Shown: positions 1-24,205 of the stretch, piece by piece
Layout: every line of letters begins with the position of its first letter
Position numbering within the stretch: position 1 is the first letter of the stretch
Assembly: GCA_016839555.1 (NCBI GenBank)
Contig: JAEOUA010000006.1
Coordinates: 288,001-352,000, forward strand
Direction of reading: 5' to 3'
Origin: Promethearchaeota archaeon
Lineage (GTDB): Archaea; Asgardarchaeota; Lokiarchaeia; Sigyniarchaeales; SOKP01
Length of the DNA: 64,000 nucleotides
Made by a program: the position numbers and the translations under genes
The notes under the pieces: model-generated
Told to the model about the DNA's origin: nothing
Seen by the model: the letters and a program-made list of their open reading frames with translations, nothing else
Databases searched by the model: none

Positions 1-509
1 TCTTTAAAGATTTTTTCCACGTTTCTCCCGTCTTTTGCGCTAGTTTCATAATAAGAGAGTGAGCCTAATTCTTCTTTAAAAGCCTCTCCTTCTTGTTTGG
101 ATACTTCTCGCTCCCCATTCTCAGCTAAGTCCAGCTTATTTCCTACTAAAACGCTTGTTTTTTCTCCGATTACTTTTTGAACTTCATTTTGCCAATTGGT
201 TAGATTTTCAAAGGAGCTTCTTCGAGTTAAATCATGGACATAAATCAAACCAGTGGCACCACGATAAAAAGGAGGACGTACAAATGAGAAGTGTTTTTGA
301 CCTGCTAAGTCCCACAATTGGAGTTTAATCTCGTAATTAGGATAATCCTTAAGCCTGACAGTTTTAGTTGAGAAGTTAGAACCAATAGTCATTATATAAT
401 TGTCTTTGAACTTATTTTCACAATAACGCAAAACGAGCGATGTCTTCCCAACTCCACCATCTCCTAGAAGACATACTTTATATATGAAGCTTTTCTTCTC
501 AGTGCTAAT
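1..509 (-). CDS. Rab-like small GTPase (3' end runs off the window; probable ATT start at 509)
   Basis: Manual translation gives G1 GDGGVGKT, G2 TIG, G3 WDLAGQ, G4 GNKLD and G5 ETSAK. Not in the ORF track. An in-frame TAG lies immediately before ATT(509), and GGTGA is at 520-516. Confidence 0.93.
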   Translation of the reverse strand, partial: MSTEKKSFIYKVCLLGDGGVGKTSLVLRYCENKFKDNYIMTIGSNFSTKTVRLKDYPNYEIKLQLWDLAGQKHFSFVRPPFYRGATGLIYVHDLTRRSSFENLTNWQNEVQKVIGEKTSVLVGNKLDLAENGEREVSKQEGEAFKEELGSLSYYETSAKDGRNVEKIFK

Positions 510-865
510 CTATATTCACCTTTTTGAATATACTTTACTCTCAGTTAAATTTTGAAACGTATAATTTGTAAAAGTGGGGAATTATGATATTTCTTAAGAA
601 AATATATTTCTTATACACTATAATAATAATTCCTAAATTAAAATTTTTTTTTTTTACCTTAAAAAGATATTTATAACAAATCAGTTGGATCTTTTCAAAT
701 CCAATATTAATTCCTTTTTAATAGAATTTTATATTAAATGCATCAGATAGAAAAATAAGTAAAGATAGAATCTTTTTACTTTAAAAAAATAATATTAATA
801 ATAGCTACTTCATAAAAATTAATTAAACACAGTTTAGTCATTCTATTGAAATAGAGTAAGGAATT

Positions 866-1633
866 GTGATTCCTATGATAAATCTTGAGAAAAAAATAGA
901 ACAATTTGCTCAGGTAATACAAGAGGCAGATAATATTGTAGCGTTAACGGGCGCAGGGATGAGTACTGAGTCTGGAATTCCCGATTTTCGCTCTCCTGGC
1001 ACTGGTTTATGGATCAAGGTGGATCCTGACGAAATCGCCAGTATTCATTCATTTGTTGCAAATCCCGGCAGAAATATAAGCTTTTTATTAGATTTGGGAA
1101 TGAAAATTTTCAGAGCGAAACCTAACAAAGGCCATAAGGCACTTACCAAACTTCAAAAAATGGGGAAACTTAAGGGTGTAATGACACAAAACATAGATGG
1201 CTTACATCAGCGAGCCCATACTGAAAATGTTATTGAATTACATGGGACTGCAAATGAGGCAAAATGTATGCGATGTAATGAAGTTTACCCAATAACGGAA
1301 TTTGTAAATCAATTCTTAGCGGGAGAAACTCAACCTTCGTGTAAAAAATGTAATGGCTTGTTAAAGCCCAATGCGATATTCTTTGGAGAACCATTAGAAA
1401 ATGAGGTCCTTCGTAAAGCAGATGAGTTGGTCGGCAATTGTGATTTATTAATTGTGTTAGGTTCTTCCTTATTGGTGTATCCAGTTGCGTTTTATCCTCA
1501 GCGAGCAATCGCCTGTGGAGCTAAATTAGGGATCATTAATATACAAGAAACTCCAATGGATCTGCAAGCAGATATAGTAATTCAAGAGAAAATTGGGGAA
1601 GTACTCCCAAAAATAGTTGATCTTGTGGAATAG
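866..1633 (+). CDS. cobB: NAD-dependent protein deacylase, Sir2 family
   Basis: GAGMSTESGIPDFR, TQNIDGLH, HG, CxxC..CxxC zinc site, GSSLLVYP. Confidence 0.93.
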   Translation: MIPMINLEKKIEQFAQVIQEADNIVALTGAGMSTESGIPDFRSPGTGLWIKVDPDEIASIHSFVANPGRNISFLLDLGMKIFRAKPNKGHKALTKLQKMGKLKGVMTQNIDGLHQRAHTENVIELHGTANEAKCMRCNEVYPITEFVNQFLAGETQPSCKKCNGLLKPNAIFFGEPLENEVLRKADELVGNCDLLIVLGSSLLVYPVAFYPQRAIACGAKLGIINIQETPMDLQADIVIQEKIGEVLPKIVDLVE

Positions 1634-1723
1634 ATAAATAAAAAAAAGTTGATCAAAAACTTATAAAATATAAATGCATAAAAACATTTATGAATATAAT
1701 AAGTGTAAAAAGTGAGATAGTAT

Positions 1724-2266
1724 ATGCTTAGTGAAAAATTACAATTAGATGATATTGATAAAAAAATTATCTCTTTAGTACAGGATAATCCCGAGTTAAC
1801 ACATACAGAAATCGCCGAGAAAGTGAACCGTTCGCAACCCACAATTGGTATGAGAATTAAGAAGCTAGAACAGAGTGGTATTCTACACTTTCAACCGGGA
1901 ATAAATTTCAAAAACGTGAATATTTATTTGGCAACAGTTGAAATTAAGACCAGAAACCCGGAAGAGATTATGGAAATGGCCCGATATTGTCCTTTTATGC
2001 TTAATGCGTTTAGGTTGAGCGGCGAGCATAATATATGTATTCTTCTTGCTAGTTCCCAGCTTGAAAAACTCGATAATATCATAAATTACCATTTCAGGAA
2101 TAAAGAAGACGTACAGAGTGTATCTATGGAAATCGTTACTGAAATTGCAAAAGATTTTGTACTTCCCATTGATTTTGACTTAGAAAATCATGATCCTACG
2201 CTTGAAGATGGCTGCGGTCCGATGTGCAAGTGGAAAAAGGCACAGAAGAATAAATCCAAAAAATAA
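1724..2266 (+). CDS. Lrp/AsnC family transcription regulator with C-terminal CGPxC
   Basis: N-terminal LDDIDKKII..EIAEKVNRSQPTIGMRIKKLE HTH, followed by a RAM-like domain with SGEHN. Confidence 0.88.
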   Translation: MLSEKLQLDDIDKKIISLVQDNPELTHTEIAEKVNRSQPTIGMRIKKLEQSGILHFQPGINFKNVNIYLATVEIKTRNPEEIMEMARYCPFMLNAFRLSGEHNICILLASSQLEKLDNIINYHFRNKEDVQSVSMEIVTEIAKDFVLPIDFDLENHDPTLEDGCGPMCKWKKAQKNKSKK

Positions 2267-2486
2267 TTATCTTTTCAAAATTTAGTTTGAAAAGCACTGC
2301 TTTTCTTTATTTAAATTATTAATAAATTTGAAAATAAGAGATAATTCAATTTTTAAATTCTAGCATAAGCTCATATATTGAATATCTTTTTTTAAGAAAA
2401 AGAAATATAAGAAGAGTATAAAATAAAAAAAAGTGAAAGACATTTTATTTCAAGAAATCTTGAATATAATCTTAATTAATTTCAAA

Positions 2487-4190
2487 TTAATTATAGATAA
2501 ATCTCTTTCTTTTATTTAGATATAAAATCGCAATAATTGTGCTCACTGCTATTGGTAAGATGATCAGTGGAGGATATACTGGAATTTGCTCTCCTTCAGG
2601 TGAAGGTAAAAATAATAATGCTAATGGCATCTGTAGAGTTAGTGCAGACTCTCCAAAAATCAAGTAAGATTGACCAGCATCTACACCTGCAATATTATCA
2701 TCTCTATATGCTCCAATTAGTAAATCATCATAACCATCCCCATTCACATCACCCGCTCCTGCTAATGTCTGTCCCGAATAGTCATATGAAGTCTCACCTA
2801 TAAAAGAAGCACCAGCATTTTCTAAGTTCACATCCATTAACCATCCCGTCTTTTGTCCAAAAATCAAATAGGTTTTCCCTATATCAACATCTGAACTGTG
2901 ATTATATCTATATGCTCCTATGAGAAAATCTCCATACCCATCACCATCCACATCGCCAGCTCCTGCGACGGCATTTCCTGAATAATCTCCTTCATCCTCT
3001 CCTATGAAAGAGGCATTTGCTTGCGAACAGTTCATCCCCGATGACCAACTATTTGTATCGTTACCAAAGAAAAGATATGTCTTTCCTTCCTTATCAATAC
3101 TTGCCTCATATTGAGGAGCGCCTATGATAAAATCATCATAGTTATCCCCATTCACATCTCCCACACCTGCCACAGCATACCCAGACCTTATACTAAAAAT
3201 TTCACCTTCAAAAGAAGCATTTGCTTCCGAACAACTCATTCCAGTTGACCATATTGTTTCATTAGTGCCAAAAAAAAGATATGTTTTACCTGCTGCGCTA
3301 CCCCCATCATCATTTTCAGGAGCTCCGATGAGAAAATCATCATATCCATCTCTGTTTATATCACCAGCTCCTGCTATTGAATGTCCCGAGACATCGCCTG
3401 CTGCTTCACCTATAAAAGAAGCGTTTGCTTCCGAACAACTTATCCCCGATGACCAACTATTTGTATCGTTACCAAAGAAAAGATATGTTTTTCCCGCATT
3501 ATTAGTACTAGCATTATAAGCGCCTATAAGGAAATCATCATATCCATCCCCATTCACATCCCCTGCTCCCGCCACGGATGATCCCGCATGATCACCATTT
3601 GCTTCTCCTAAGAACGATGCATTTGCATTTGCTAGATTAATATCTTTTCCCCAGCCATAATCTCGCCCGAATATTAAATATACTTTTCCTGGTTTGTTGA
3701 AGTCATCTCCTCCAGAAGCTCCTATAAGAAAGTCATCATATCCATCTTTATTTACATCACCCGCTCCTGCCACCGCACATCCAGCATAATCATCTTCACT
3801 CTCTCCTATAAAGGATGCATTTGCTTTGGAACAGCTCATTCCTGTTGACCAACTATTTGTATTATTTCCGAAAAATAGATAGACTTTTCCTTCATTTCCA
3901 CTACTTACATTATATTGAGAAGCTCCTATAAGAAAATCATCGATGTTGTCTCCATTCACATCTCCAATACCTGCTAAAGAAACGCCAGCTAAGTCATACT
4001 CATTTTCACCAATGAAAGAAGCATCGGCATTTGCCAGATACGTATTTATTTGCAATGCTGAGATATTTATTTCTTTTCTCGTATTTATAAATAATTCAGG
4101 ATTAGTCTGGTTTTCGATAAAGCTTCCTATACTAACAAGACCTGCTAATATGAGTATTAAAATTAATCCTGTTAAGTTTTTCATTTTCAT
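2487..4190 (-). CDS. Membrane-anchored surface protein with seven FG-GAP / integrin-alpha-type beta-propeller repeats
   Basis: Signal peptide, seven copies of GAGDVNGDGYDDFLIGA..GKxYLFFG, C-terminal hydrophobic helix and basic tail. Confidence 0.9.
   Translation of the reverse strand: MKMKNLTGLILILILAGLVSIGSFIENQTNPELFINTRKEINISALQINTYLANADASFIGENEYDLAGVSLAGIGDVNGDNIDDFLIGASQYNVSSGNEGKVYLFFGNNTNSWSTGMSCSKANASFIGESEDDYAGCAVAGAGDVNKDGYDDFLIGASGGDDFNKPGKVYLIFGRDYGWGKDINLANANASFLGEANGDHAGSSVAGAGDVNGDGYDDFLIGAYNASTNNAGKTYLFFGNDTNSWSSGISCSEANASFIGEAAGDVSGHSIAGAGDINRDGYDDFLIGAPENDDGGSAAGKTYLFFGTNETIWSTGMSCSEANASFEGEIFSIRSGYAVAGVGDVNGDNYDDFIIGAPQYEASIDKEGKTYLFFGNDTNSWSSGMNCSQANASFIGEDEGDYSGNAVAGAGDVDGDGYGDFLIGAYRYNHSSDVDIGKTYLIFGQKTGWLMDVNLENAGASFIGETSYDYSGQTLAGAGDVNGDGYDDLLIGAYRDDNIAGVDAGQSYLIFGESALTLQMPLALLFLPSPEGEQIPVYPPLIILPIAVSTIIAILYLNKRKRFIYN
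3034..3488. repeat. 47-bp identical direct repeat (3034-3080 and 3442-3488) inside the FG-GAP gene
   Basis: atccccgatgaccaactatttgtatcgttaccaaagaaaagatatgt occurs twice. Confidence 0.85.
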
Positions 4191-4453
4191 TATTTAAATA
4201 ATTGTTTTAATTTTATATTTTAAAATTATAAAGAATTATTATAAAATCAAATAAAAGTTTGACTCTTTTATGAAATTCTATTCAAAAAGCTTTTATTAAT
4301 AGTTTAGATTAATTCTCATTTTTAATGAAATTTTTGAATTTAGAAAAGTTTAAAGAAAAAATTAAACTGGGTAAATAATTACAATCTTTCTAAAAATATA
4401 TAAAAATTATTTATATCACAGAATTTTGTTAAGAAAAACAAATATAAAAATAT

Positions 4454-5059
4454 TTAACTTTCTGGTCCTGGCTCTGATTCGGATTCTGGTTCTTCTTCTG
4501 TATCTATTTCGTCGAATTTAAACTTAGGCATATCGGTTTTCAAGTGGCAATTAGGTCCACAATATCTTCCATCAAAATTCTCAATTTGGAAGTCTACTGG
4601 CATAATAAAATCGTGAATACTCTCGATAAGAATATTTGTTTTTACAGAAAGCACATTCGGATCTCGTCGAAAGCATAAATCTACTAATTTTTCAATAGTT
4701 TGAAGATCGGTTGCTGCGATAAAACAGAGAAGATTATAATCGCCAGAGATTTTAAATGCATGGTTAATAAAGGGACAATCTTTTATTTTTTCGACAATAT
4801 CTTCTACGTCCTTAGTGGATGCATATACTATTGCGGTTTTTATGTCCACTTTTTTAATATTAAATCCAACTTGCTTTTTTAAAAGATGTTTTCTCTCTAA
4901 TTTAATGATTCGAGCGCCTACCGCGGGCTGGCTCTTATCTATTTCTTCAGCAATTTTGCTGTGGGTAATATCGGGATTTTCTTCAATTAATTCGATGATT
5001 TTTTTATCATCTTCATCGATACCTAACAATTGATTGAAAGTTTTTTTTTTCATATCCAT
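4454..5059 (-). CDS. Lrp/AsnC family regulator with CGPxC motif and acidic tail
   Basis: HTH KIAEEIDKSQPAVGARIIKLE; SGDYN; paralog of 1724..2266 and 5441..5998. Confidence 0.88.
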   Translation of the reverse strand: MDMKKKTFNQLLGIDEDDKKIIELIEENPDITHSKIAEEIDKSQPAVGARIIKLERKHLLKKQVGFNIKKVDIKTAIVYASTKDVEDIVEKIKDCPFINHAFKISGDYNLLCFIAATDLQTIEKLVDLCFRRDPNVLSVKTNILIESIHDFIMPVDFQIENFDGRYCGPNCHLKTDMPKFKFDEIDTEEEPESESEPGPES

Positions 5060-5440
5060 TTTACAACAAGTTCTTATAGTTTAATAAAATTACCTATAAT
5101 TTTTAAAAAATTTTGAAATAAAGTTATATTAAAATATTAGCGGTCTTCACATGATTGATTTTAATTTATAAATACTAAATATATAACATATAAAAAAAAA
5201 ACCTAAAAAAGTTTTAGAAATTAATTTGAACCTTTAAAAATAATTGGTAAGGAAAAAAAAATCTCCCTTTTTAATTTTTAACGCTAATTTAGAAGTGTAG
5301 CTAATTGCTTATTAATTGCTGTATTCTTAATTTTTTATGGGAAATAAAGGAAAATAGTAAGAAACAAAATCATAAAATATGAAATCAACTAGTTTTTACC
5401 AGAATAAAACATTAAAAAATAATGGACGTAATATTTTTGA

Positions 5441-5998
5441 TTAACTTTCTTCTTTAACAATTGATTTCATATCAACTAATTTTTCTCCAAATTGTTTAAA
5501 AGAATCCAAATCGATATTGTCATTAAAATAAATAGGAATCACAAAATCATGAATACTTTCCATTAGAATTTCGGTTTCGACTGCGGTTACGTTTGGGTCT
5601 TCTCTAAAATACACATCAACCACGCGTTCTATAGTTTTTAAATCGCTTGCTGAGATAATACAAAGAACGTTGAATTTCCCGGATATTTTAAATGCATAAT
5701 TTATTAATTTCGTACTTTTGATTCTTTCAACAATTCCCTCTACATTTTTCGTTGAGATAAATACAAACGCGGTTTTAACATCCACTTTTTTAACATTAAA
5801 TCCAACTTGCTTTGTAAGAAGATTTTTTCTTTCCAATTTGATGATACGAGCACCCACTGCCGGCTGAGATTTGTCGATAAGTTCCGCGATTTCCCGATGT
5901 GTTATATCTGGATTTTGTTCTATCATTTCAATGATTCTTTTATCATCATCATCAATTTCTAATAATTCATTAAAATTTTTTTCCATAGACATCCCCAC
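5441..5998 (-). CDS. Lrp/AsnC family regulator (tandem paralog lacking the Cys motifs)
   Basis: HTH nearly identical to that of 4454..5059. Confidence 0.88.
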   Translation of the reverse strand: MGMSMEKNFNELLEIDDDDKRIIEMIEQNPDITHREIAELIDKSQPAVGARIIKLERKNLLTKQVGFNVKKVDVKTAFVFISTKNVEGIVERIKSTKLINYAFKISGKFNVLCIISASDLKTIERVVDVYFREDPNVTAVETEILMESIHDFVIPIYFNDNIDLDSFKQFGEKLVDMKSIVKEES

Positions 5999-6128
5999 TT
6001 AGTTAAAAATCGGTAATCTCTAATATAGTTATTTTTAATAATTAAAAATGAATTTAAACAGAATAGAATTAAAAAATAATATATTTTCCCTTAATTCTTT
6101 TATTTCATAAATTCGTCTATGTCAAATT

Positions 6129-7091
6129 TTAAAGGAGGCTCACAAAAATATTGACGATTATTATAATTATGGTAAAAGCAATGACGCTTAATAAAAAATA
6201 AAGAGGTTTTCCTTTCTCTTTTTCTGGTAGGACTTCTCTTACAATAGTATAAAGAATAACACCTGATATAAATGAGAACAAGATATATAGAATTTCTAAA
6301 TTTATTTGATAAAAAAAATCAAGAAACAAATCAAATCCCATTCCAATTAATACTGCTAAAGCTAATATCAATTTTTTGCTTTTGGTCTCTTCATAATCAA
6401 CTTCAATATCTATATCAGTAAAGATCTTATATCTATTCAATAATCGCTTTGAAATAATTAATCTAAAAAACGCAAAAACATAAAATAAGATTGCAGGGAT
6501 TAAATCAATCAGTATTAGGTTATATAGGATAATTCCAATAAGAAAATGGTAAAAAAAGTCCGTAAAGAAGCGCAAATCTTTAAATTCTTCGTTTAGATGA
6601 TCATGTATTCTTTTTTTTGAATTTGTTATTTCCTCTCTTATTGTTTTTCCTTGAGTATGTAATTCCTTTACCACTCTCGATATATCTCTTAATGCCTCTT
6701 CATCCATTTGTTCGTGAGAGAGTTCATCACTAAAAATATCTTCCATATGATCCTCAACTTCTTCTAAATTCATTTCCATTTCCATTAACTTTCTCACTTT
6801 TTGTTGTGCCTTAGATTCTACTCGCTGAAGAATTAGTTTTTCAGATACATGAATAAAGACAAATCCCACTAATACAAAAAAATATTCAAAAAGCGTAAGA
6901 TGGAGCGGATATTCTGGAAGTCTTACTGAGATCTCGGGAAGAACTATCAAAAAAAAATAGGTCACCGATATCCCAGCAATAATAGAGACAGGAATTCGTG
7001 GTAATTTTTGCCCATAATAATCTATAATAAAAAAGGTAAAACCCAGTAAAAATGCAATAATCATTAAAAAGAACTGTTGGACTGCTAACAT
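6129..7091 (-). CDS. ZIP-transporter-like membrane protein with a long coiled-coil insertion
   Basis: AGISVTYFFLIVLPE and FISGVILYTIVREVLPE resemble ZIP helices; charged helical loop of about 85 aa. Confidence 0.55.
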   Translation of the reverse strand: MLAVQQFFLMIIAFLLGFTFFIIDYYGQKLPRIPVSIIAGISVTYFFLIVLPEISVRLPEYPLHLTLFEYFFVLVGFVFIHVSEKLILQRVESKAQQKVRKLMEMEMNLEEVEDHMEDIFSDELSHEQMDEEALRDISRVVKELHTQGKTIREEITNSKKRIHDHLNEEFKDLRFFTDFFYHFLIGIILYNLILIDLIPAILFYVFAFFRLIISKRLLNRYKIFTDIDIEVDYEETKSKKLILALAVLIGMGFDLFLDFFYQINLEILYILFSFISGVILYTIVREVLPEKEKGKPLYFLLSVIAFTIIIIIVNIFVSLL

Positions 7092-7278
7092 AATCTATTT
7101 TTTGAAGTGTTTTTTGATTTTAATAGGGTTTTATTCAAAAAATTAATAGGTTTTAAGCTATTAAAAATTTATGAAGTATTTAACATAATCAACTGATAAT
7201 TTAATATTTAATTTTTATCCTTCATTATACTCATTAATAAGATATTGAAATTCTATCTTTTAATTAAGGAAAAAGTCT

Positions 7279-8187
7279 ATGACTCAATTTCTAATAATTA
7301 CATCAACTAAGGATGCTGCTTCGTTAAATATGAGAAATAAGTTTTTAGATTCTCCCCAATACAAATTTGAACATATTTCTGACAAATGGGATAATAATAT
7401 TCTCTATAAATTGACATCATTCACAGATTCAGATGAGGAAAAAGAACAATTTCTACATGATAATGAAATTTTTTTAGGATTAACAAACCAAAGATTAATT
7501 TTTTTAAATAAAGGTAGTTTTAATGAAACAGTAATTGATCCTGATATGATGATTTTTGCGTCTCGTCATGCTTCTAAGACGGGGCGTCCTTCATTTCTGG
7601 TTCATACCACAGGGAATTGGAGCGAAGATATTAGATACGGTGGAAATAAAAAAGAATTATCTGTTGGAAGCGCCTTGATGCTTAAGGCGGGATATCAATC
7701 TTTTTTAAAATATGCGGAAATGGAAGCAGTAAGTGATTTTTCAATAGATATGGAAGTTTCTCATCACGGTCCGACTAATTTAGAAAAACCCTTAATATTT
7801 ATGGAATTAGGAAGTACTCTTAGCGAATGGCAGCATAACAGAGCAGGGATTATTGCTGCTAATGCTATTATTGAGACTACCCTTAGATATAAGCATTTGC
7901 AAAAAGAAGGATCCCAAAAAGTTGGTGTTGGATTTGGAGGGACTCATTATGCCCCTCAGTTTCAGAAGCTTATAAAAAAAGCAGATATCGCAATCTCTTA
8001 TATATGTCCTAAGTATTATATTAGTGAGTTAAATAAGGATTTAATTACCCAGATGCTAAATAAGAATTTGGAAAAAGTGGATTACTTCATTTTAGACTGG
8101 TCTGGTATTAATTCAAGTGATAAAAAGCATTTATTTCCCCTTTTAAAAGAATATGACCTTCCAATTAAAAAAATTAAGGAATTTTAA
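7279..8187 (+). CDS. dtdA: D-aminoacyl-tRNA deacylase, archaeal DTD2
   Basis: FASRH, VHTTGN, EVSHHGPT, FMELGS, GFGGTHYAP. Confidence 0.92.
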   Translation: MTQFLIITSTKDAASLNMRNKFLDSPQYKFEHISDKWDNNILYKLTSFTDSDEEKEQFLHDNEIFLGLTNQRLIFLNKGSFNETVIDPDMMIFASRHASKTGRPSFLVHTTGNWSEDIRYGGNKKELSVGSALMLKAGYQSFLKYAEMEAVSDFSIDMEVSHHGPTNLEKPLIFMELGSTLSEWQHNRAGIIAANAIIETTLRYKHLQKEGSQKVGVGFGGTHYAPQFQKLIKKADIAISYICPKYYISELNKDLITQMLNKNLEKVDYFILDWSGINSSDKKHLFPLLKEYDLPIKKIKEF

Positions 8188-8206
8188 GAGCTACTAAGAG
8201 AAAGAA

Positions 8207-9094
8207 TTATTTATTACCTTGTGCCACCATTTCAAAATATTTTATTAAATTGGTAAACACGTAATTTGCAGAAGTAAATCCTTGAGTAGATGAATGAGAG
8301 AGTATTTTGCTAAGAAATTCGTGATGGGGAATAATTTGAGATGGAGTTATGTTTAATTCTCTAATATTATAAAAACTTTGCCATAAACTTATAGGCCAGG
8401 TGATTAATTCGGCAAGAGTTTCATTAAATAATTTTTCTCCTTCTGGACTTAATTCTAATGTGGATTCTAATTTATATGAGAATGTCTCATTTTCCTTAAT
8501 TATTGAAATTAGACCATCTTTTTGAATCTCTTCCATGATTGAATGGATTTTTTCTAAAGATAAGGGTGTTTTTTTAAAGATTTTATTCATATTTTTCAAA
8601 ATATCCTCATCCGTTTTTACATTAAATTTTAGTAAGGTATAATTGCGAGCAATAATATTATATTTAAGGGGGATTGTTTCATGATCCATCCTATTATATT
8701 GAATCAGATTCCCTAATATCTCTTTTGCTACAATATATTTAATTCTTAATTGATCTTCTTGGGAATAGCTCTTCTTAAAAATTTTAGAGTTAAAATATTC
8801 ATCGTAAAACGTTTCAAGTAGAGATTTAACAGCATAAAACCCATCAATAAATGCGTTAAAAACTGTTTTCAGAATTTTCAATCGATATTCATTATCTTTC
8901 ATAAACTTCTCTTTTTCAAAGGGAATTTCTCGGATTAGATGGGGTTTAGAATCAATTTGGCTAAAATTCTCCTCCCATTTTTGTCGAAAACGATATCTCT
9001 GGGTCTTTGCGATATGAGAAAGCCTTCCGATTAAATTAATTAAAAGGTCCAAGAATTGTTTTTCTGTAATTTCACTCATGCTACCAACCATCAC
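8207..9094 (-). CDS. Hypothetical protein (possible winged-helix segment)
   Basis: 295-aa ORF with normal composition; no recognised family. Confidence 0.7.
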   Translation of the reverse strand: MMVGSMSEITEKQFLDLLINLIGRLSHIAKTQRYRFRQKWEENFSQIDSKPHLIREIPFEKEKFMKDNEYRLKILKTVFNAFIDGFYAVKSLLETFYDEYFNSKIFKKSYSQEDQLRIKYIVAKEILGNLIQYNRMDHETIPLKYNIIARNYTLLKFNVKTDEDILKNMNKIFKKTPLSLEKIHSIMEEIQKDGLISIIKENETFSYKLESTLELSPEGEKLFNETLAELITWPISLWQSFYNIRELNITPSQIIPHHEFLSKILSHSSTQGFTSANYVFTNLIKYFEMVAQGNK

Positions 9095-11076: not shown

Positions 11077-11886
11077 ATTTCCCACTCGTTTAAATATAAA
11101 ATATTATTAGGTGGGATAAACGATCCAAAGAAATTTCCTATTTTCGCTGATTCTAAATTTGATAAAAATGATTTTTTTAATATTGGTATCTCTTTAAACT
11201 CCTTAGAATGCTACAGTAATTTTGGGGATTTATATTTATTCATTTTTTGGCATATTAACCTTAAAGAAGAGCGATTCAAATTTCTGATACCTTCATTCTT
11301 CGTCGGTTCCAAGGCTGCAATCTTATGTATAGATAAATCGAATTATGATTCTTTAGAACAAGTGAATCATTTCATAAAAATCATTAAAGAAAGAGAGGAG
11401 GATATTTCAATCTTTATTTTGAGCTTTCAATCGAAACAATCTTATAAAGAAGTCTTTGAACAAGATATATTAGATCTAATTGAAAAATACAATATTAGGA
11501 GATATTATTCAAATAAATTTGAAAATGAAAAAGAGAAATTGAACTATATACAAAAAAAGAAATTTTTTACATTTTTAATTAAAGAATTGAGTAGAAATAA
11601 AGAATGGCAAGATCGAAATCTTTCAATTATATTTCCTACAGAGGTAGAAGATTATCAAGAATTTAGAAATTCCTACAATATTTGTCCCATTTGTAAAAAT
11701 AAAAATCATCCTGAAAGTTTAAAAAATTTCTATTTCAGTAAACAACACGACCTAATGATCTTGCGAGATAAATTTTTAAAACTTCAAGAGATATTGAAAG
11801 ATAAGTTAAAAGATTTAAATATAAATCTTGGAATTCCATGCTGTAATTGTTATAAAATACTTCTTGGTAATAAGAAATCTACATAA
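11077..11886 (+). CDS. Degenerate Rab-like (pseudo)GTPase domain fused to a C-terminal zinc-binding domain; probable ATT start
   Basis: The frame is open for 95 codons upstream of the called GTG(11362): FKYKILLGG...FWHINLKEERFKFLIPSFFVGSKAAILCIDKSNYDSLEQV. C-terminal CPIC..CCNC. GGTGA at 11066-11070. Confidence 0.72.
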   Translation: MSHSFKYKILLGGINDPKKFPIFADSKFDKNDFFNIGISLNSLECYSNFGDLYLFIFWHINLKEERFKFLIPSFFVGSKAAILCIDKSNYDSLEQVNHFIKIIKEREEDISIFILSFQSKQSYKEVFEQDILDLIEKYNIRRYYSNKFENEKEKLNYIQKKKFFTFLIKELSRNKEWQDRNLSIIFPTEVEDYQEFRNSYNICPICKNKNHPESLKNFYFSKQHDLMILRDKFLKLQEILKDKLKDLNINLGIPCCNCYKILLGNKKST

Positions 11887-15547: not shown

Positions 15548-16000
15548 TTAAAGGTCTATAGATTGAAATCGAGAATACCCTTCTTTAACAAAATCATAAT
15601 CCAGAAATTCAATTTTTTCAGGGATTATTTTTAAAATTAAGTCTCGCTTTCCTCGTACTATTCTTTGAGCTTTTTGAAATTCAGCATCTCCTTTCTCAAG
15701 AAAAATTAATCGTTGGGTACCTGTGGCTGTTATTTGCATACCTTGAATCTTTCCCGTGTCTAATGGAGTATAGATTCCGATGCTAATAATCGGATTTTCT
15801 TTAATATTATTGACTTTTCGACCAGGAGATGGTCCCACATAAATATTATAATTAGATGCATTTTTTTCTATATAAAAATCCATAGGAGTTGCTCGGGGAA
15901 TATTATTTTTATCACTTGTACAGAGCACTAGCACCTTTCTTTTGCTAAGAAATTGCCGAATCTCTTGTTCCAATTTTTCTCTTGGCATCTTTTTTTTCAT
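15548..16000 (-). CDS. Pyridoxamine 5'-phosphate oxidase-like split-barrel protein
   Basis: VLCT..NIPRATP..KVNNIKENP.ISIGI. Confidence 0.78.
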   Translation of the reverse strand: MKKKMPREKLEQEIRQFLSKRKVLVLCTSDKNNIPRATPMDFYIEKNASNYNIYVGPSPGRKVNNIKENPIISIGIYTPLDTGKIQGMQITATGTQRLIFLEKGDAEFQKAQRIVRGKRDLILKIIPEKIEFLDYDFVKEGYSRFQSIDL

Positions 16001-16108
16001 ATTGAATCAATGATATAAATGAAAAACAGAATTAAAAGTTCTATAATCTTTGCCAAAAGGAGAGTATTAGAAAAATAAGTTTTATGAGAAAAATGTAGAA
16101 TCAAAATA

Positions 16109-17275
16109 TTACTTCTTTATCATTAAATCATTAAATAATTTATCGTCATTATCCAGAGCTGCTCGGATATAAGGCGAGATAGGACCCCTCCCAAGCGCCA
16201 TTATTCTTATTTTTCGTCCAAATTCAGGATCCATCGCAGCACCTACCTTTAATTGTACTTTAGTAGGGAGTTCATTTGAAATGGATGAAATTATCTTATC
16301 CATTTTAAAGAGTGTCAATTTATGACTCCCTGTGACAGAAATTAGGCAATTATCGACTTGTTGGGTGTCTAATTCCAATAATGGATTATGGATGGCCAAT
16401 TTTGATTTTTTTGTTAAATCTTGTTCATTTCCAAGAGATTCAGTTATTCCAATCAAACCAGAAGGATATTTTTTGTTTTTTTCGAAAATTTTTCTGACAT
16501 CAGCAAAATCTATATTAATGAGCCCACAATTATTAATTAAATTCACCACTTCCCGGATGCTTCGAATTAAGATTTCATCCATTAATTTAAATCCAATCAA
16601 TATTGGAATGTTTGGAGCTATTTTCACCAAATTATTATTGGGTAAAGTAATGATACTATCAGAAAATTTTGCGAGATTTTTGAGACCTCCCATCGCCCTC
16701 CCGCTTCTTTCAATGCCCTCCGAATTAAAAGGAATAGTACAAAAAGAAACAACAATAGACCCCTTATTTTTAGCTTCTCTAGCAATGATAGGTGCTGCGC
16801 CGGTACCTGTGCCCCCGCCTAACCCACATGTTATGAAGGTAATATCAGATTCTAAAGATTGCGCAATTCTTTTTGAATCTTCTTCCGCTGCTTCCGCCCC
16901 GACACAAGGATTATTTCCAGACCCAAGACCGTTACAAGTTTCCTTTCCTATTAATATTTTCTTATCAGAATTAGAATAATATAAATCATGAGCATCTGTA
17001 TTTATATTCAAGGTTTCAGTACCATTCAGCTCCATCTCTTGGAGTCTTGAAACCGTATTATTACCCGAACCCCCTACTCCAATTACTGTGGATTTTATTC
17101 TTAACACATTGAGTAGATCTGCTAAATAATCATCATTATCATAGTTTTGATCCTGAGTATTCAACTGTTTATTAGCTTGAGAAAGCTGTTTAAAACGTGA
17201 TCTCACTGATGAATCAATTTTTAAATGATTTGGAAGTAATTTTATATTATCATCGGGATTAAACATATTAATCAC
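16109..17275 (-). CDS. ftsZ: Cell division protein FtsZ (divergent, FtsZ1-like N-terminus)
   Basis: GVGGSGNN, NTD, GLGSGNNP, GLGGGTGTG, GLINIDFADV. Confidence 0.92.
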   Translation of the reverse strand: MINMFNPDDNIKLLPNHLKIDSSVRSRFKQLSQANKQLNTQDQNYDNDDYLADLLNVLRIKSTVIGVGGSGNNTVSRLQEMELNGTETLNINTDAHDLYYSNSDKKILIGKETCNGLGSGNNPCVGAEAAEEDSKRIAQSLESDITFITCGLGGGTGTGAAPIIAREAKNKGSIVVSFCTIPFNSEGIERSGRAMGGLKNLAKFSDSIITLPNNNLVKIAPNIPILIGFKLMDEILIRSIREVVNLINNCGLINIDFADVRKIFEKNKKYPSGLIGITESLGNEQDLTKKSKLAIHNPLLELDTQQVDNCLISVTGSHKLTLFKMDKIISSISNELPTKVQLKVGAAMDPEFGRKIRIMALGRGPISPYIRAALDNDDKLFNDLMIKK

Positions 17276-17476
17276 TTTATTTGAAATTTTGAGATATATT
17301 CTATATTACCAGAAAGAATATCCTAATAATATTTTCAAATAATATGCTCATAATATGTTTTAATAATTAGTTAGTTTCTAGGATTTAGTTTTTCTTTGAT
17401 TAATGTTTCGATAGATTTTTAAATATGCGTATCTATTCATTATAATGACTTAAAATACTAAAGGAGAGAAAAATAA

Positions 17477-18112
17477 ATGAATCTTGCTCAAATAAGGGAT
17501 GACTTAGAGGGTGCTTGGTGGCATTATATCCGAGTTAATGATTTTAGTTTCTTGCAAACGATTCCCGATCTGAGCGATTTACAAATGAACGAGGGAGATA
17601 TTTTAATCCATAAGCAGATTAAGGAAGGTGAGCGATTTCCTACCATAAGGTATCATCTAATTAAAAACAAAAAATCATTAATCATAGAAAATGAGGAAGT
17701 AAAAGAAATATTAGCTAATAAATTAGTAGAGTATGTAAAAAAAAATAAATCATTACCCTTTGCGTGTAAGGTGGTAAAATTTTTTAAGAATGGCAACGCT
17801 CAAGTTAATTATTCTCCTACACAATATGATAATTTTGCCCTTAAAATTAACCCGAAAGCACATAAAGTGGAAAATTTGCAAAGCTTTTTTGAGGGATTAA
17901 AAAGCGATCCAAATCCTATAAAGCCAATTAAAACCGAAAAGGAACCACCATTATTTAAAGATCAATGGATTATCAGAAGTTCGGCAGATGAGAATAAAAC
18001 ATATATAGTCACTAAAAATAAAGATGGAAGTTTTTCATGTACCTGCCCTCATCATGTTTTTCGTAAAGCTGAATGTAAGCACATAAAGCAAGTTAAGAAG
18101 TCTCTTTCTTAA
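17477..18112 (+). CDS. Protein with C-terminal SWIM zinc finger
   Basis: YIV..FSCTCPH..CKHI. Confidence 0.8.
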   Translation: MNLAQIRDDLEGAWWHYIRVNDFSFLQTIPDLSDLQMNEGDILIHKQIKEGERFPTIRYHLIKNKKSLIIENEEVKEILANKLVEYVKKNKSLPFACKVVKFFKNGNAQVNYSPTQYDNFALKINPKAHKVENLQSFFEGLKSDPNPIKPIKTEKEPPLFKDQWIIRSSADENKTYIVTKNKDGSFSCTCPHHVFRKAECKHIKQVKKSLS

Positions 18113-18325
18113 AGTGTTTTCATAAATTTTAAGAAAATTTCTCTGATTATAAAAAGTATTTAGATGATTCTTTCGATCTACTTTCTATATTTGTAAGTAT
18201 TGTATTATTTGATTCTTGAATAATCCAATAGCAAAATTTACTTTTTTCAAGTGAAAAGAAGGAGAAAAATACATTTATTAAAGTAGATTTAGATCTAAAT
18301 AATATAACATAATAATATTGAACAT

Positions 18326-18568
18326 ATGGAAACAGAAAACCTTCAGCAAGAGAGCGGAACTATTACAAATGAGCTCATAGAGCCTGGAAAAAATATTAAA
18401 GTGCGTGCAATTATGAGTTGTCCTAACTGTAGTTATAGAAAGAGCTTTAAAAATACATTTCATCGCAGTGACATAGAAACGATGGTGGTAAGTCTTAAAG
18501 TGTTCGATTGGTTAAGTTGCCCCTCTTGTGGGGAAATGCTCAAAATGACTCTAGAATTTGAGATATAA
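18326..18568 (+). CDS. Small zinc-ribbon protein
   Basis: CPNC...CPSCG. Confidence 0.72.
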   Translation: METENLQQESGTITNELIEPGKNIKVRAIMSCPNCSYRKSFKNTFHRSDIETMVVSLKVFDWLSCPSCGEMLKMTLEFEI

Positions 18569-18724
18569 CTGCTTTTTTTGCTTCTTATTTAATAAACTTC
18601 TAAATTTTCATCTATTTTAATCAAAAATACCCAATATTCAATGAATCTCTAAGTTTTGATAAAAAGAGACAAAAAAAAATATTTTATTAGTTTTTCAAAT
18701 TTTCCCAATCTAATTTATTCAATT

Positions 18725-19108
18725 CTATTTGTAATTTATTGAAAACTCGAGAAAAAGAATTCCAAAGATAAGATCAACGATTGTTAATGAGAATGCTATG
18801 AATTTAATATCACCTAATAAGAGATATATCAAGAAAATAACAAAAACACCAAATTTCTCCACAACATAAATATTGGCGAGTTTCTGATACTTTTCTATAT
18901 TTCTACTGGTTAGATAAAAAAGTAAACCAAAGAGAAAGACAAAAAAGAAAAAAGAATAAGCCCATATAAAGCTAGGAGGCAATGCTGTAATGAATAACGT
19001 AGCAGAATTTGGTGACACAATCAAAACAAGCACAAATACAATACCTATAATGAGATTCCATAAAGCCGCAATTAAAAACAAGTATTTATAATAAGTGTTT
19101 TTTTCCAT
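18725..19108 (-). CDS. Small four-helix membrane protein
   Basis: Four hydrophobic segments; AALWN, EK and DLIFG motifs. Confidence 0.7.
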   Translation of the reverse strand: MEKNTYYKYLFLIAALWNLIIGIVFVLVLIVSPNSATLFITALPPSFIWAYSFFFFVFLFGLLFYLTSRNIEKYQKLANIYVVEKFGVFVIFLIYLLLGDIKFIAFSLTIVDLIFGILFLEFSINYK

Positions 19109-19173
19109 ACATTTTACCTTTTTCTAAATTTTTGTAATAAAGATAAAAATATTACCATGTTATAAAAATTTTT

Positions 19174-20487
19174 TTATTCAAGATCTAATTCTATATTCCC
19201 GTAAGTGCCTCCTCCTCCTGGAGTATATTTTATTTCATTATTTCTAAGTGCCTGAATAACGCTACCGATGCTTTCATTATACTTTTTTATATTCTCTATA
19301 GAATGGTTTAATAGAATTTCATATTCTGTTCCTAACTTCTCTATAATCTTATTATAAGCATTCACAACCGTTTTACTATTTTTAGATTTAATACCTTCTA
19401 TAGAGCGAATGATATCGATTAAAGGAACGGCATTTATATAGGGAGGTCTATGAGGAGGATGTTTCGGTTCTTTATAAGTGGATATATCATCGATACGTTC
19501 GCTTACTCCGAGCTTTATCTTATAATTGTTTCCTGTTTTATCTTTACAGGCAGGGCATATCATTTTTTTTTTGGCAACATCTTTTATATAGGCATTTTTA
19601 GCACTTATAGGATCTTTTTCAAAAAAGATAATAAAATTTTCGGTGATAGAATATTGACTAAAGTTTATTCCAAAACTTTTTGAAGTCTTTTTAAATAAAA
19701 CTCTTCTGCGACATTTGCTACAAAACATGTTATAATATTTACCCAATTTTGGATGGAGCCCCACGTTGAGGCTAATTTTTCTTCCGTCTTTTCTTTTTAA
19801 CGCTAATAAAATTTCTTCAAAGGAGGGGTTTTCAATATAAAATTTATTAAATTCTCTCCCGAGAGAATAAGGTTTTTGCGAATGTGCATCACTATTACTT
19901 AAAAAACTAAAATTTTCCAGAGTCTTTAATCTGTCTGCTAAATCTGTATTAGCAGATAATCCTAATTCGACAAAATCAATTTTATCTACTGCACCTTGAT
20001 AACATTCTTCCATAGTTCTATATCTATTTTGCCGAAAAATTGCCTTAAATGGAGTGAAAGCGTGCGCCGGACCCATTACGCCCCCAATATCAGTTATTAT
20101 ATCTGCTAATTCTGGGGGAGAGAGATTCACCCGTGGTCTTCCTCCCCACTCCCCTAAAATATTTTTTGAATGAGGTTTTAATTTTTCTTGAATTTCTCGT
20201 ACAACTTCGAAATTTGGAAAAAACACTATATGATGGATGTTTTTTTCATCCTCTATTTCGCTCTGAAGTATAAAAAAAATGTCATTATAAGAATACACAC
20301 TATTGTTATTCTTTTCTAAATGATCTTCCATATATTTCAACCATTCCGGTTGGAGGATATCACCTGTACCTAAGATATTTAATCCTTTCTTTTTGCAAGT
20401 TTTTTCCATAGAATCCAAATTTAATGACTGTGAAACCGCTATCGAATGAGGCGAATGGATATGCAAATCAGCATAATAATACTTCAA
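19174..20487 (-). CDS. Endonuclease Q family PHP-domain nuclease
   Basis: ADLHIHS, GTGD, PAHAFTP, ELGLSA, SNSDAHS, LGRE, GKY..CxxC, CPxC, GVSERI, PGGGGTYG. Confidence 0.9.
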   Translation of the reverse strand: MKYYYADLHIHSPHSIAVSQSLNLDSMEKTCKKKGLNILGTGDILQPEWLKYMEDHLEKNNNSVYSYNDIFFILQSEIEDEKNIHHIVFFPNFEVVREIQEKLKPHSKNILGEWGGRPRVNLSPPELADIITDIGGVMGPAHAFTPFKAIFRQNRYRTMEECYQGAVDKIDFVELGLSANTDLADRLKTLENFSFLSNSDAHSQKPYSLGREFNKFYIENPSFEEILLALKRKDGRKISLNVGLHPKLGKYYNMFCSKCRRRVLFKKTSKSFGINFSQYSITENFIIFFEKDPISAKNAYIKDVAKKKMICPACKDKTGNNYKIKLGVSERIDDISTYKEPKHPPHRPPYINAVPLIDIIRSIEGIKSKNSKTVVNAYNKIIEKLGTEYEILLNHSIENIKKYNESIGSVIQALRNNEIKYTPGGGGTYGNIELDLE

Positions 20488-21653
20488 GAGTTTTTTCCAA
20501 TTTCTTAATAATTTATCTTAATAAAGTACATGATTTTATGATTTAATAAATTAATAATTACTAACTTAATAATCACAACTATTAAGATTAAAAGGATTAT
20601 AATAAGTTTTTTTAAAAGAAGCTAAAAAGGGAATAAAAGAATAAGAAATATAATTTTAAGCTTTAAGAACATAAGAATTAGAAAAATATAAAAACAAAAT
20701 TAATCATAACTTATCAAATATGTATATTTTGATAAATCAAATTTATCTATTTTAATTGTCTTTCCATTATTTGAATTTAAAGGTATTTTAATTACTATTT
20801 CTCCATCAATATAGAGATTATTGTAAAAAATTTCACTTTTTTTATCAAAATCAATAAATTTATTAACACGCTTCATATATAATTTTTCTATATATATTAA
20901 TAACTTTGCTTATTTCAGCAAAATTACAAATTATTGAAAAAGGTTATTTAAATATAATATATTATATATATAGTCTATATATTCCCGACAAAAAGTATAA
21001 ATATTCTCCAAATAATTCTTTCTACACACCTTTTATCTGATTTACCGTTTTGGTCTTAAAAATTTCTCTCTGTAATAGTCTTTTGAATCATAATCCTCGT
21101 TGAAATCCCTTTGAGTTGTTGTTTTATTATCTAAAAACTCTAGTTTTTTCATCATATAAAAGAAATCATTTTTTATTTTTATTATTTAAAGATCTCATTC
21201 AAGTTCGTGATAACAGATCAAACTCACATTCTTTAATAATAGACTTCAATTAAACCATCCCTATTAGAAGATGCGACATTTTTCAAAGAGAGAAATATTA
21301 AATATTATGTAGAAAATGTAAAGAAAAATGTAGAATATGAGAATTAGTATTTCACTAATGAAACCAAATTATTTCATTAGATCCTCCTAATATACTAGGA
21401 GAGCAATAAAGAATCTTACCAGGTCAATATCCTGATCCGATTACCTCTATTGCTTTTTTTTTCTATAGAGGGTTTTAATATAGCTTTCTAATAATTGCTA
21501 TACTTCTTAATTAGATAATGATATGGTTTGAATTTAAACTTAATGTATATAAAATGTTGTAAATCTATATCCTATATAGGTCTATATAGAATAGAATAAA
21601 TTACCCATGCTTTTAGATTTAGATAAATATATAGGTTTATTATTCAAAAAGTG

Positions 21654-22691
21654 CTATATAATTATCATTTTATCTTGTTGTTGATTTCCGAGCAAAATAC
21701 GATAATAAATTTCCTCATTCTTGAAATTGACTTTTTCGAGCTTGCCTTCAACCATTACAATTTCTTCCTCTTTCGCATGTTCGCAAAATTTTCCCCGAAA
21801 GGAGTTAATCTCTTTAATTTTTTTAATCTCGATATCTTTAGAGAGATCTTTTTCATTTATAATCCTTATTGGATTGATGAGATATGAGCAAGGAGTAAAC
21901 AGCGAATCGGAGGAATTAATGATCTCTGCTTTTAGTTTAATTCTTCCCAAGTTTGTAAACTTGTAATCATAGTAATTCCCTTTCCACTCTTCTGGACTTT
22001 TAAGATATCTAATAAAAAAATCAATTCCTTCATATTTACCTTGATGATTTTTTCTTATTTCACTTTTCATGAAATCATTAAAAGAAATGTCTGCTCCAGC
22101 GGCTCGAAAGCGATAATGTTTTTTATAGTCTTCAAAATTATATTTCCTACACTCGTTTTTATCCTGAAAAATATCTAATAGTTTCTTTTGAAAATTTTTA
22201 GCAACTTCTGTACCATAGATGATGAGATCAATATCAGAATTTACTTTATTTAGACCTACCATATGGGATCCTGTTATTCCAAGAGATCCTTCTGGCAAAT
22301 CTCCTTTTTCAATAAATAAATTACAAAGATTTACTGCTATTATTTCACTTTCATTTAGACTCTTTTTCTCCTTTAAATCTTTAAAATATGCTTGTGGGGT
22401 AAAAATGTGCTCGATATCTTTCCTTTTAACCCCTTGCAATTCCATATCTAATTGTTTAGAATAAAAAAGATATTGTGGGAAATGTTGTTTAAGAAAGGAA
22501 TATCTTTCGGAAATATCATAAATTTTCCGGTAATGAATACCCTTTCTAATTCGATCTCCTTCAGAATCTGGATAGAATCTAATAAAACTAATAATACGAT
22601 CCTTCGGATGAAAAATACCTTTTACATCAAAAAATAAATTGTCTTCTTTTGTTTGAAGATACGCTCCTTCAATGGCTTGGTCAAAACTCAT
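21654..22691 (-). CDS. Predicted nucleotidyltransferase, Pol-beta superfamily (COG1665-like)
   Basis: GITGS..SDIDLIIYG; C-terminal OB-like SFRG..EGKLE. Confidence 0.78.
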   Translation of the reverse strand: MSFDQAIEGAYLQTKEDNLFFDVKGIFHPKDRIISFIRFYPDSEGDRIRKGIHYRKIYDISERYSFLKQHFPQYLFYSKQLDMELQGVKRKDIEHIFTPQAYFKDLKEKKSLNESEIIAVNLCNLFIEKGDLPEGSLGITGSHMVGLNKVNSDIDLIIYGTEVAKNFQKKLLDIFQDKNECRKYNFEDYKKHYRFRAAGADISFNDFMKSEIRKNHQGKYEGIDFFIRYLKSPEEWKGNYYDYKFTNLGRIKLKAEIINSSDSLFTPCSYLINPIRIINEKDLSKDIEIKKIKEINSFRGKFCEHAKEEEIVMVEGKLEKVNFKNEEIYYRILLGNQQQDKMIII

Positions 22692-22775
22692 TTTTACTCA
22701 AAAAGATATCTATAATAAAAATAAGAGAGAAAAAAAGAAAAGTTCTTTTTTTTTAAAGTTTTTAATAGTTCAATT

Positions 22776-22967
22776 TTATTGTCTGACCATAGTAGCTCCA
22801 CAACTGGGACATTTTGTTTGATAGCATGGAACTCCAACTTGATGTGGAACGGTCTTACCACAGTTAGGACAGACACAATTGCCTCCAGGCCCAGCTGCAT
22901 ATGGGCCTCCACCTCTTCCTCTCCCCCCTCCTCCAGGGGGGCCTCTACCTCCACCTCTTCTACTCAC
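22776..22967 (-). CDS. Small RGG-rich zinc-ribbon protein
   Basis: GPGGNCVCPNCG..H..GVPC..KCPSCG; GGAGGTG RBS upstream. Confidence 0.8.
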   Translation of the reverse strand: MSRRGGGRGPPGGGGRGRGGGPYAAGPGGNCVCPNCGKTVPHQVGVPCYQTKCPSCGATMVRQ

Positions 22968-23079
22968 AATTTACACCTCCATAAATATTTTAATAATTAA
23001 ATTGGTTTTCATAATATGAATAATTATTCATAATTAAAAATGTTTACTTTTTAATTTAAATATTGAGTAAAAATAAAGA

Positions 23080-24036
23080 TTATTTCGCAAAAATTCTTCT
23101 CAGTTCGCCGATCGTGGTACTATGTTCAGCATACACGTCGTGGGGATGGATACTTTCGTAGCTTTCAACCTTGAAATTTATTTGAAAATCGTCATCGAGA
23201 TTTGGGAAATCACGTTCAATGAAAATTTTTGCCATTTGTCTTATGATATCCTCAGCGAATAAGGGTTTAAGATGAGCAGTCCTTATTAATTCCGCTTCTT
23301 CGGGTCGTTTTAATACAGATTGAATCTTGCCAGACATACTATCTTCAATTACATCAATTAATTGGAGAACATCAATTTTGTGATTTTTTAAATCTTTTAT
23401 TTGAAGTTGGATAGTTCCTTTCGCACGTTGGTTATGAGATGCGAAGGGAAGAATATTTAATAATTTTTTAAGATCTTCATCAGAAATGTTGATATCCTTT
23501 CTTGTTTTCAGTACTTCTTCTGTGAATTCTTGGGACATTTCTTTAGCACATGGACAGCAGCTCATTCCCAGTGCTGTGGCGCCAATAAAATAAGTAAAAT
23601 CGATCTCTCCCTCTTTATTTTTATTTGCTCTGGTACAGGAACTAATATCGTACGATTTTTGGATATTTCCGTGAGATTCTTCCCTCACTTGCACAATTAT
23701 TTTACCTTCTAGTTTTACCTCTACTTTTGAGGTATAGGGATGTCTTTTTAATAATTTTCTTGCAATACGGTCTCCTACTAGTTCGATAGTGGGTGTAGGT
23801 TTAAAAATAACTTCATTAATTATTTCTTCTATAGTTTCCGCTGTTCGAGACATATGAATTCCTCGCTGTTGAGCTGGGAGAGAAATTAAAGCTGAAATTT
23901 GGGGATAGAATGAATATTTTTTATTCTCTTGAACGATTTCTACCTTTTTTTCAACATTTATAATACCAACTTTGTCGATTGGCAATTTAAACTCAACAAC
24001 TTCCGAATCTTGAAGATCTTTTTTAAATTGATGTAT
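23080..24036 (-). CDS. mptA: GTP cyclohydrolase MptA (FolE2 family); probable ATA start at 24036
   Basis: RGIHMSR, CPC, SHNQR, LKRPEE, FAED, ESIHPHD. The family's N-terminal DxQ motif (DLQ) lies upstream of the called TTG(23985). Confidence 0.88.
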   Translation of the reverse strand: MHQFKKDLQDSEVVEFKLPIDKVGIINVEKKVEIVQENKKYSFYPQISALISLPAQQRGIHMSRTAETIEEIINEVIFKPTPTIELVGDRIARKLLKRHPYTSKVEVKLEGKIIVQVREESHGNIQKSYDISSCTRANKNKEGEIDFTYFIGATALGMSCCPCAKEMSQEFTEEVLKTRKDINISDEDLKKLLNILPFASHNQRAKGTIQLQIKDLKNHKIDVLQLIDVIEDSMSGKIQSVLKRPEEAELIRTAHLKPLFAEDIIRQMAKIFIERDFPNLDDDFQINFKVESYESIHPHDVYAEHSTTIGELRRIFAK

Positions 24037-24205
24037 TTTTCATCACCAATTTCTGATATTAAATCACTATTCTAGACTAGAAAAAGATGTATTAATTTTA
24101 ATATTTCAGATTAATATAAAATGAAATTAATATGATCAATAATTATTGCAAACCAGAATTTTATGAATGGTTTAAAAGAGCCTTTGATTAAAGTAGATAA
24201 GATTT

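Follow-up and report, generated by a model that had tools for sequence, protein, structure and literature searches.

Near-cognate codons very probably serve as real translation starts behind Shine-Dalgarno (SD) motifs in a family of Lokiarchaeia, here called f1; most of them are AUU, fewer are AUA, and AUC or CUG is found now and then. The stretch of DNA examined (the window) comprises 64 kb, G000:C5:288001-352000, of the f1 genome G000, a 3.74-Mb, 30% GC metagenome-assembled genome (MAG) of 12 contigs that the names of its homologs assign to Promethearchaeota/Lokiarchaeia, and contains three genes of this kind, encoding a Rab/Ras-family small GTPase, a Rab-like protein and the GTP cyclohydrolase MptA. 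The use of these codons is a habit of the family that extends beyond these three genes: by our estimate, 40 genes or more of G000 would use near-cognate starts, among them the genes for aIF1, aIF5A, the proteasome alpha subunit, MptA, Rab and GPN GTPases and an ESCRT-III protein. This reading is carried by the anatomy of the sites, by a genome-wide enrichment with canonical spacing, by domain homology upstream of the first canonical starts and by the interchange of ATT with ATG, TTG or GTG in orthologs, from which we infer that ribosomes initiate at the ATT and ATA codons and insert methionine (Met) there.

Putative start sites in the window

The three sites read exactly as the original prediction had them, with GGTGA, a spacer of six nucleotides and then ATT at 509 (minus strand), ATT at 11077 (plus strand) or ATA at 24036 (minus strand). 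The features concerned are as follows.

1..509, minus strand: Rab/Ras-family small GTPase gene, 182 codons, its 3' end beyond the start of the window
516..520, minus strand: SD of the Rab gene, GGTGA (AGGTGA), complementary to the 16S 3' end GGATCACCTCCT and kept in contig L176
515-510, minus strand: spacer of the Rab gene, atatag
507..509, minus strand: putative ATT start codon of the Rab gene, with TAG directly upstream; first canonical start TTG at 431, past the P-loop
11066..11070, plus strand: SD of the Rab-like/Cys-rich gene, GGTGA (AGGTGA), spacer aaataa
11077..11886, plus strand: Rab-like gene with putative ATT start at 11077-11079, TAA directly upstream, a degenerate P-loop and C-terminal Cys motifs
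24043..24047, minus strand: SD of mptA, GGTGA(T), spacer tgaaaa
23080..24036, minus strand: mptA, a FolE2-type GTP cyclohydrolase gene, putative ATA start at 24036-24034
24041..24043, minus strand: out-of-frame ATG overlapping the mptA SD, which opens a mini open reading frame (ORF) and is not the mptA start
38363..38381, minus strand: ambiguous start region of a 531-codon gene, with GTG at 38381, ATT at 38372 and TTG at 38363, all in frame

The nearest in-frame stops, TAG for the Rab gene, TAA for the Rab-like gene and TGA for mptA, lie one to two codons upstream, and at none of the three sites does a canonical start precede the conserved N-terminus, both as had been claimed. The upstream stop is partly automatic, a spacer of six placing the TGA of GGTGA in frame. 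The first ATG, GTG or TTG follows 26 (Rab), 95 (Rab-like) and 17 (mptA) codons downstream of the ATT, ATT and ATA, and ten other genes likewise have no such codon between the last in-frame stop and the conserved N-terminus. Read from its ATT, the Rab protein matches Pfam Ras with an E value of 1e-50 (residues 11-176, profile positions 1-161), and MptA read from its ATA matches GCHY-1 with an E value of 7e-58 (residues 7-303, from profile position 3). Because these domains begin upstream of the first canonical codons, starting at the latter would drop the Ras P-loop and the beginning of the MptA domain. The Rab-like protein has weak matches to Pfam Roc and Ras, and its N-terminal strand, SFKYKILLGG, is conserved among orthologs. 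Canonical starts in the window show the similar spacing that had been reported for them: the start at 44043 (minus strand) has the form GTGA-N7-ATG, and that at 57588 the form GTGA-N6-TTG.

A fourth site, the ATT at 38372 of the 531-codon, DHPS-like gene, had been put forward as ambiguous and is indeed so. It has the arrangement AGTGA-N5-ATT, with a GTG (within the AGTGA) three codons upstream of the ATT and a TTG three codons downstream, and because these canonical codons are available the gene is not diagnostic. The mini-ORF at mptA (ATG AAA AAT ACA TCA ATT TAA, six codons, 24023-24043, minus strand) begins within the SD, overlaps the ATA start and is not conserved in orthologs. Elsewhere in the window, an ORF at 32688-34157 (plus strand) has 53 open codons, lysine-rich at their beginning, before its first TTG; no SD with a near-cognate start was found in it.

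Genome-wide enrichment behind SD motifs

That SDs are used is confirmed by an enrichment of G at positions -14 to -8 relative to first ATG starts, where the most over-represented 4-mers are GTGA, AGGT, GAGG and GGTG. The 16S 3' end reads ...GGATCACCTCCT in the relatives G013 and G026, the 16S gene of G000 itself being cut by the end of contig C5. On these grounds we take the SD consensus to be GGAGGTGATC, with GGTGA-N6 as the optimum. We then counted in-frame codons at least four codons upstream of the first ATG, GTG or TTG in 2957 non-overlapping ORFs of G000, each 120 codons or longer, scoring an SD where at least 5 nt matched GGAGGTGATC at an aligned spacer of 5-8. Such a motif precedes 35 of 1173 ATT codons (odds ratio, OR, 6.1, p 4e-14; OR 6-7.6 and p ~1e-13 across counts) and 15 of 1001 ATA codons (OR 3.0, p 5e-4), as well as 3/68 CTG and 3/278 ATC codons. 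The corresponding count is 70/13870 for all other codons and 31/6189 for AT-only controls (AAA, AAT, TTA, TTT, TAT), with 5 of the 31 control matches being the codon that adjoins an ATT or ATA candidate. The genome-wide count that had been recommended as a check hence finds ATT and ATA enriched behind SD motifs at the 5' ends of homology-supported frames.

Behind the same SD, the first canonical start is ATG in 153 cases, TTG in 45 and GTG in 8, making ATT (35) commoner than GTG among strongly SD-led starts. Subtracting the background leaves ~43 near-cognate starts (ATT ~29, ATA ~10, CTG ~3, ATC ~2), or at least ~1.3% of ORFs and ~18% of strongly SD-led starts. The original prediction had described non-NTG starts as routine, which is borne out to the extent of about one in six strongly SD-led genes; they do not form a majority.

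The spacing of these candidates follows that of canonical starts. The ATT spacer histogram peaks at 6-7 nt (18 and 10 cases), matching ATG (65 and 47) and TTG (20 and 18), and the AT-only controls are flat. Where GGTGA-N6 is followed by at least 100 open codons, the codon in the start position is ATG in 16 cases, TTG in 9, GTG in 2, ATT in 10, ATA in 3-4, AAA in 1 and AAT in none. No excess of ATT was seen genome-wide behind the non-SD control motifs xyTGA, and admitting 4-nt SDs does not enlarge the ATT/ATA excess. Raw counts of GGTGA-N6-NNN that impose no ORF conditions are unusable across genomes, being swamped by intragenic GGTGA. The shared spacing optimum and the lack of gain with 4-nt SDs suggest that the weak codon can be used because a strong SD stands at the right distance from it. 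In the mechanism that we propose, a strong SD (core GGUGA, complementary to the 16S 3' end GAUCACCUCC) would pair with the small subunit and set the codon 6-7 nt downstream into the P site, where the initiator Met-tRNA would tolerate a mismatch at the third position and the protein would begin with Met at the ATT or ATA position.

Pfam domains that begin before the first canonical start

In 12 genes, comprising Rab, mptA and 10 of 20 further candidates, a Pfam domain runs from profile position 1-7 and begins within the 3-31 residues that follow the near-cognate codon, whereas one must go 17-88 codons downstream to reach the first canonical start. Examples other than Rab and mptA, with their apparent start codons, are given below.

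Guanylate kinase: ATA, first canonical start 56 codons on
Three receiver domains: ATA, ATC and CTG, first canonical start 35, 52 and 27 codons on, respectively
ABC ATPase (ABC_tran): ATA, first canonical start 88 codons on
GPN-loop GTPase: ATT, first canonical start 45 codons on
GFO/IDH/MocA oxidoreductase (GFO_IDH_MocA): ATT, first canonical start 40 codons on
MinD/CooC-like ATPase (CbiA/MinD-like), reading IKIAVSGKGGVGKT: ATT, first canonical start 39 codons on
ESCRT-III/Snf7 gene (L262), G000:C11:124296, plus strand: ATA behind GGGTGA, first canonical start 72 codons on

The other candidates of the 20 are uninformative, either for want of a Pfam match or because their domain starts downstream of the canonical codon. 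Two 195-codon paralogs (IQ..HKVRQEINRIRKRLDL) at G000:C11:279627 (plus strand) and C1:140635 (minus strand) both have ATT after GAGGT, and may represent a repeated or mobile gene that keeps its ATT start.

NCBI table 11 lists ATT, ATA, ATC and CTG as permitted starts. Standard gene callers allow only ATG, GTG and TTG, so that dozens of proteins per genome of this well-studied group would be deposited truncated, such as a Rab without its P-loop, an ESCRT-III protein minus 70 residues (for L262 a standard call would cost ~50 residues of the Snf7 domain) and aIF1. Truncation by gene callers had been anticipated from the window and is found in a close relative, in which the public call of the Rab gene (contig L176) is a fragment of 143 amino acids (aa) with the P-loop missing. 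Truncated calls distort surveys of eukaryotic-signature proteins and the expression constructs built from them.

Start codons of orthologs

For six genes, orthologs were sought in 30 relatives belonging to four families of one order, and the 5' ends were aligned. The counts below are of f1 genomes with a near-cognate codon and without a canonical alternative.

mptA: 9/14 f1 genomes, with ATT in 8 and ATA in G000, all behind GGTGA-like motifs
aIF1: 12/16 f1 genomes
aIF5A: 4/17 f1 genomes, the others having ATG or TTG at the same codon
Rab: 3/13 f1 genomes
Proteasome alpha (PsmA): 2/18 f1 genomes
Rab-like: 2/10 f1 genomes

Across these panels, f1 genomes that lack an obligatory near-cognate start have ATG, TTG or GTG at the same codon. 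Alignment with orthologs, also recommended as a check, thus finds a canonical codon or ATT at the very same place, in ~18 related genomes. In the other three families that codon is nearly always ATG, the exceptions being ATA in aIF1 (two genomes of one genus) and ACG in PsmA (one genome). All mptA orthologs start at an ATA, ATT or ATG codon followed by CAT CAA TTT, with no out-of-frame ATG upstream; the codon is ATG in G005, and G001 and the other families have ATG within two codons. A GGTGA, GGTGG or GGTGT motif 5-7 nt ahead of the mptA start is kept in f1 orthologs. Rab orthologs have ATT (G004, G017, G010) or ATG at or next to the ATT codon, and the Rab-like orthologs have ATG at the same codon and also ATT (G004), ATC (G011) and CTG (G007).

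An independent Joint Genome Institute (JGI) metagenome contig, L176, carries GGTGA-acaaag-ATT ahead of a 92%-identical Rab. The first 40 codons of the two genes differ by 14 synonymous and 0 non-synonymous changes, and the TTG that is the first canonical codon of the window Rab is TTA in L176.

Among the proteasome alpha orthologs, L081 (G020) has ACG at the start position after GGTGA-N7, without a canonical alternative, and L071 (G012), an ortholog that is otherwise 74% identical, has three in-frame TAA stops after about codon 16, which may reflect an insertion, an intervening element or a pseudogene.

The habit is strong in family f1 and weaker or uncertain in the sister family f2. In 400 kb of G013, an f1 genome of another genus, an SD precedes 4/133 ATT and 4/100 ATA codons compared with 4/1489 others. 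In 1.2 Mb of G026, a closed f2 genome in which SD-led ATG genes are frequent, the counts are 4/306 for ATT (not significant) and 5/224 for ATA (p 0.04). In 400 kb of G024, also from f2, ATT scores 4/91, with p 0.005 against the full SD reference and 0.07 against the core, in a small sample. The GC content of G026 is similar (31%), which argues against base composition alone as the cause. G024 additionally has two start candidates that combine ACG with an SD.

aIF1 and start stringency

The aIF1/SUI1 gene of G000 lies outside the window (G000:C6:232950-233270, plus strand) and has no ATG, GTG or TTG before its Cys knuckle. In the ortholog panel (loci L089-L113), the putative start position is occupied by ATT in 11 of the 16 f1 genomes and by ATC in one, and none of these 12 offers a canonical codon instead; other families mostly have ATG or TTG. 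In the aIF1 protein alignment the sole family-specific columns are A/D versus Q/E, in the linker after the Cys knuckle, and no fidelity-linked change in the f1 protein was seen there. In one sister-family genus, L106 (G024) and L111 (G028) have an apparent ATA start with an out-of-frame ATG or TTG and an A6 run just upstream, a leader that could signify either an ATA start or a frameshift-prone arrangement.

The conserved ATT start of aIF1 mirrors that of bacterial infC and suggests an autoregulatory set-point. We infer that start stringency is relaxed in f1, possibly through the AUU-started aIF1. Tentatively, and with more doubt than confidence, we extend this analogy to a heritably relaxed stringency set by an autoregulatory loop through AUU-initiated aIF1, under which AUU and AUA would be regular, possibly regulated weak starts for dozens of genes, including those of eukaryotic-signature proteins.

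Alternative explanations

Several observations weigh against near-cognate initiation or temper the evidence for it. Searches of the assembly for the initiator tRNA using ARAGORN (with and without introns), regular expressions and the Rfam tRNA model returned 25-28 tRNAs, the majority of them intron-containing, and neither kind of tRNA-Met. Codon-usage log-likelihood over the stretch from ATT to the first canonical codon did not separate SD-led ATT (0.07) from controls (0.11) in this 30% GC genome, true N-termini scoring 0.25. The ortholog panels were chosen from the near-cognate state of G000 and their members are related and so non-independent, with the result that the f1 fractions are biased upward and are illustrative, not rates. 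Some ortholog cases are also ambiguous, as the GTG inside GGTGA is in frame at a spacer of 5 or 8.

Among the alternatives, it is improbable that the upstream frames are translated by another route, whether by stop read-through or recoding, by reinitiation coupled to the upstream gene or from a different nearby noncanonical codon. The exact initiating codon is unprovable from sequence, and some genes carry two adjacent ATT/ATA codons; the ATT spacer is nevertheless sharply 6-7 nt, as for ATG, and orthologs put ATG exactly there. Against read-through, two stop types (TGA plus TAG or TAA) occur within three codons upstream at the Rab and Rab-like sites, with no upstream start. The same arrangement, two stop types within three codons and no upstream ATG, led us to reject a variant code or the reassignment of a single stop. 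Coupling would suit the gene at 11077, which sits 95 nt behind a co-directional ORF, but is inapplicable to Rab and mptA because their upstream neighbors are divergent.

We consider it very unlikely that the genes are truncated or decaying and begin at the first downstream ATG, GTG or TTG, with the upstream frame untranslated. This is what gene callers output, as in the 143-aa Rab, but it would cost the P-loop or 20-50 residues of conserved domain in at least 12 genes and would hit essential genes (aIF1, aIF5A, proteasome alpha) across family f1. The upstream Rab codons, moreover, are under purifying selection, as their purely synonymous divergence from L176 indicates, and the supposed TTG start of Rab is not conserved.

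Assembly or sequencing errors that conceal a true ATG, which might be suspected in a 12-contig MAG and at mptA, where an indel in the A5 homopolymer would frame the out-of-frame ATG 24043 (followed by five A, 7 nt upstream of the ATA), deserve next to no credence, given that the ATT recurs at the corresponding codon of numerous genomes whose assemblies are independent, as well as in the JGI contig, and that the enrichment is confined to ATT/ATA and tracks the SD spacing profile. The indel proposed for mptA is ruled out by the orthologs that start at the same codon without an upstream ATG.

Comparison with known systems

ATT and ATA are permitted but very rare starts in prokaryotes (PMC5499595). 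The initiator Met-tRNA can read AUU and AUA through a third-base mismatch, and IF3 or eIF1/aIF1 discriminates against such reading (PMC5499595; PMC6237735), with aIF1, the eIF1 homolog, destabilizing complexes on non-AUG mRNAs (PMC6237735). SD-led near-cognate initiation as proposed for f1 resembles the bacterial AUU starts behind an SD of Escherichia coli infC and pcnB, in that the near-cognate codon stands at normal SD spacing, has no canonical alternative and interchanges with AUG in relatives. Like aIF1 here, infC encodes a factor that polices start-codon choice (PMC5499595). In contrast to the bacterial cases, the pattern in f1 would extend to at least ~1.3% of genes and ~18% of strongly SD-led ones, in an archaeon whose factors are of the eukaryotic type (aIF1, aIF1A and aIF2), not IF3.

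The archaeal starts listed in a 2020 review of initiation are AUG, GUG and UUG alone; the review also describes the SD as complementary to the conserved 16S 3' end and states that SD motifs are not prevalent in Lokiarchaeon MK-D1 (PMC7531240). The starts considered here are SD-led as in that account, but ATT outnumbers GTG among the strongly SD-led starts of G000 (35 vs 8). The sole Asgard near-cognate case that our literature search found is a single-gene remark on a "rare ATT start codon" for the tubulin AtubA in a MAG of the Kariarchaeaceae (Heimdallarchaeia) (PMC13394414). There, too, the conserved first beta-strand (MSEVVVV) is regained by starting at an ATT that precedes the called start and is plausibly spaced from a ribosome binding site. 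AtubA is one rare case in another class, whereas f1 presents a genome- and family-wide pattern backed by statistics and orthologs.

Near-cognate initiation and the autoregulation of eIF1 through a poor start context are described for eukaryotes (Ivanov et al. 2010, cited in PMC6237735; PMC3326321). Like eIF1, the f1 aIF1 gene has a weak start of its own, ATT, an arrangement through which stringency might be subject to feedback. The two systems differ in how the start would be placed, by scanning and Kozak context in eukaryotes and by SD pairing here. The control of translation in eukaryotes is marked by near-cognate initiation that eIF1 keeps in check. A family that is among the closest archaeal relatives of eukaryotes, that appears to use AUU and AUA widely and that probably starts aIF1 itself at AUU thus offers a system for asking what sets and regulates stringency. 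The AUU starts of infC in bacteria and of aIF1 in f1 appear to have become fixed independently of each other, which, if true, would make them a clear example of convergence in control logic.

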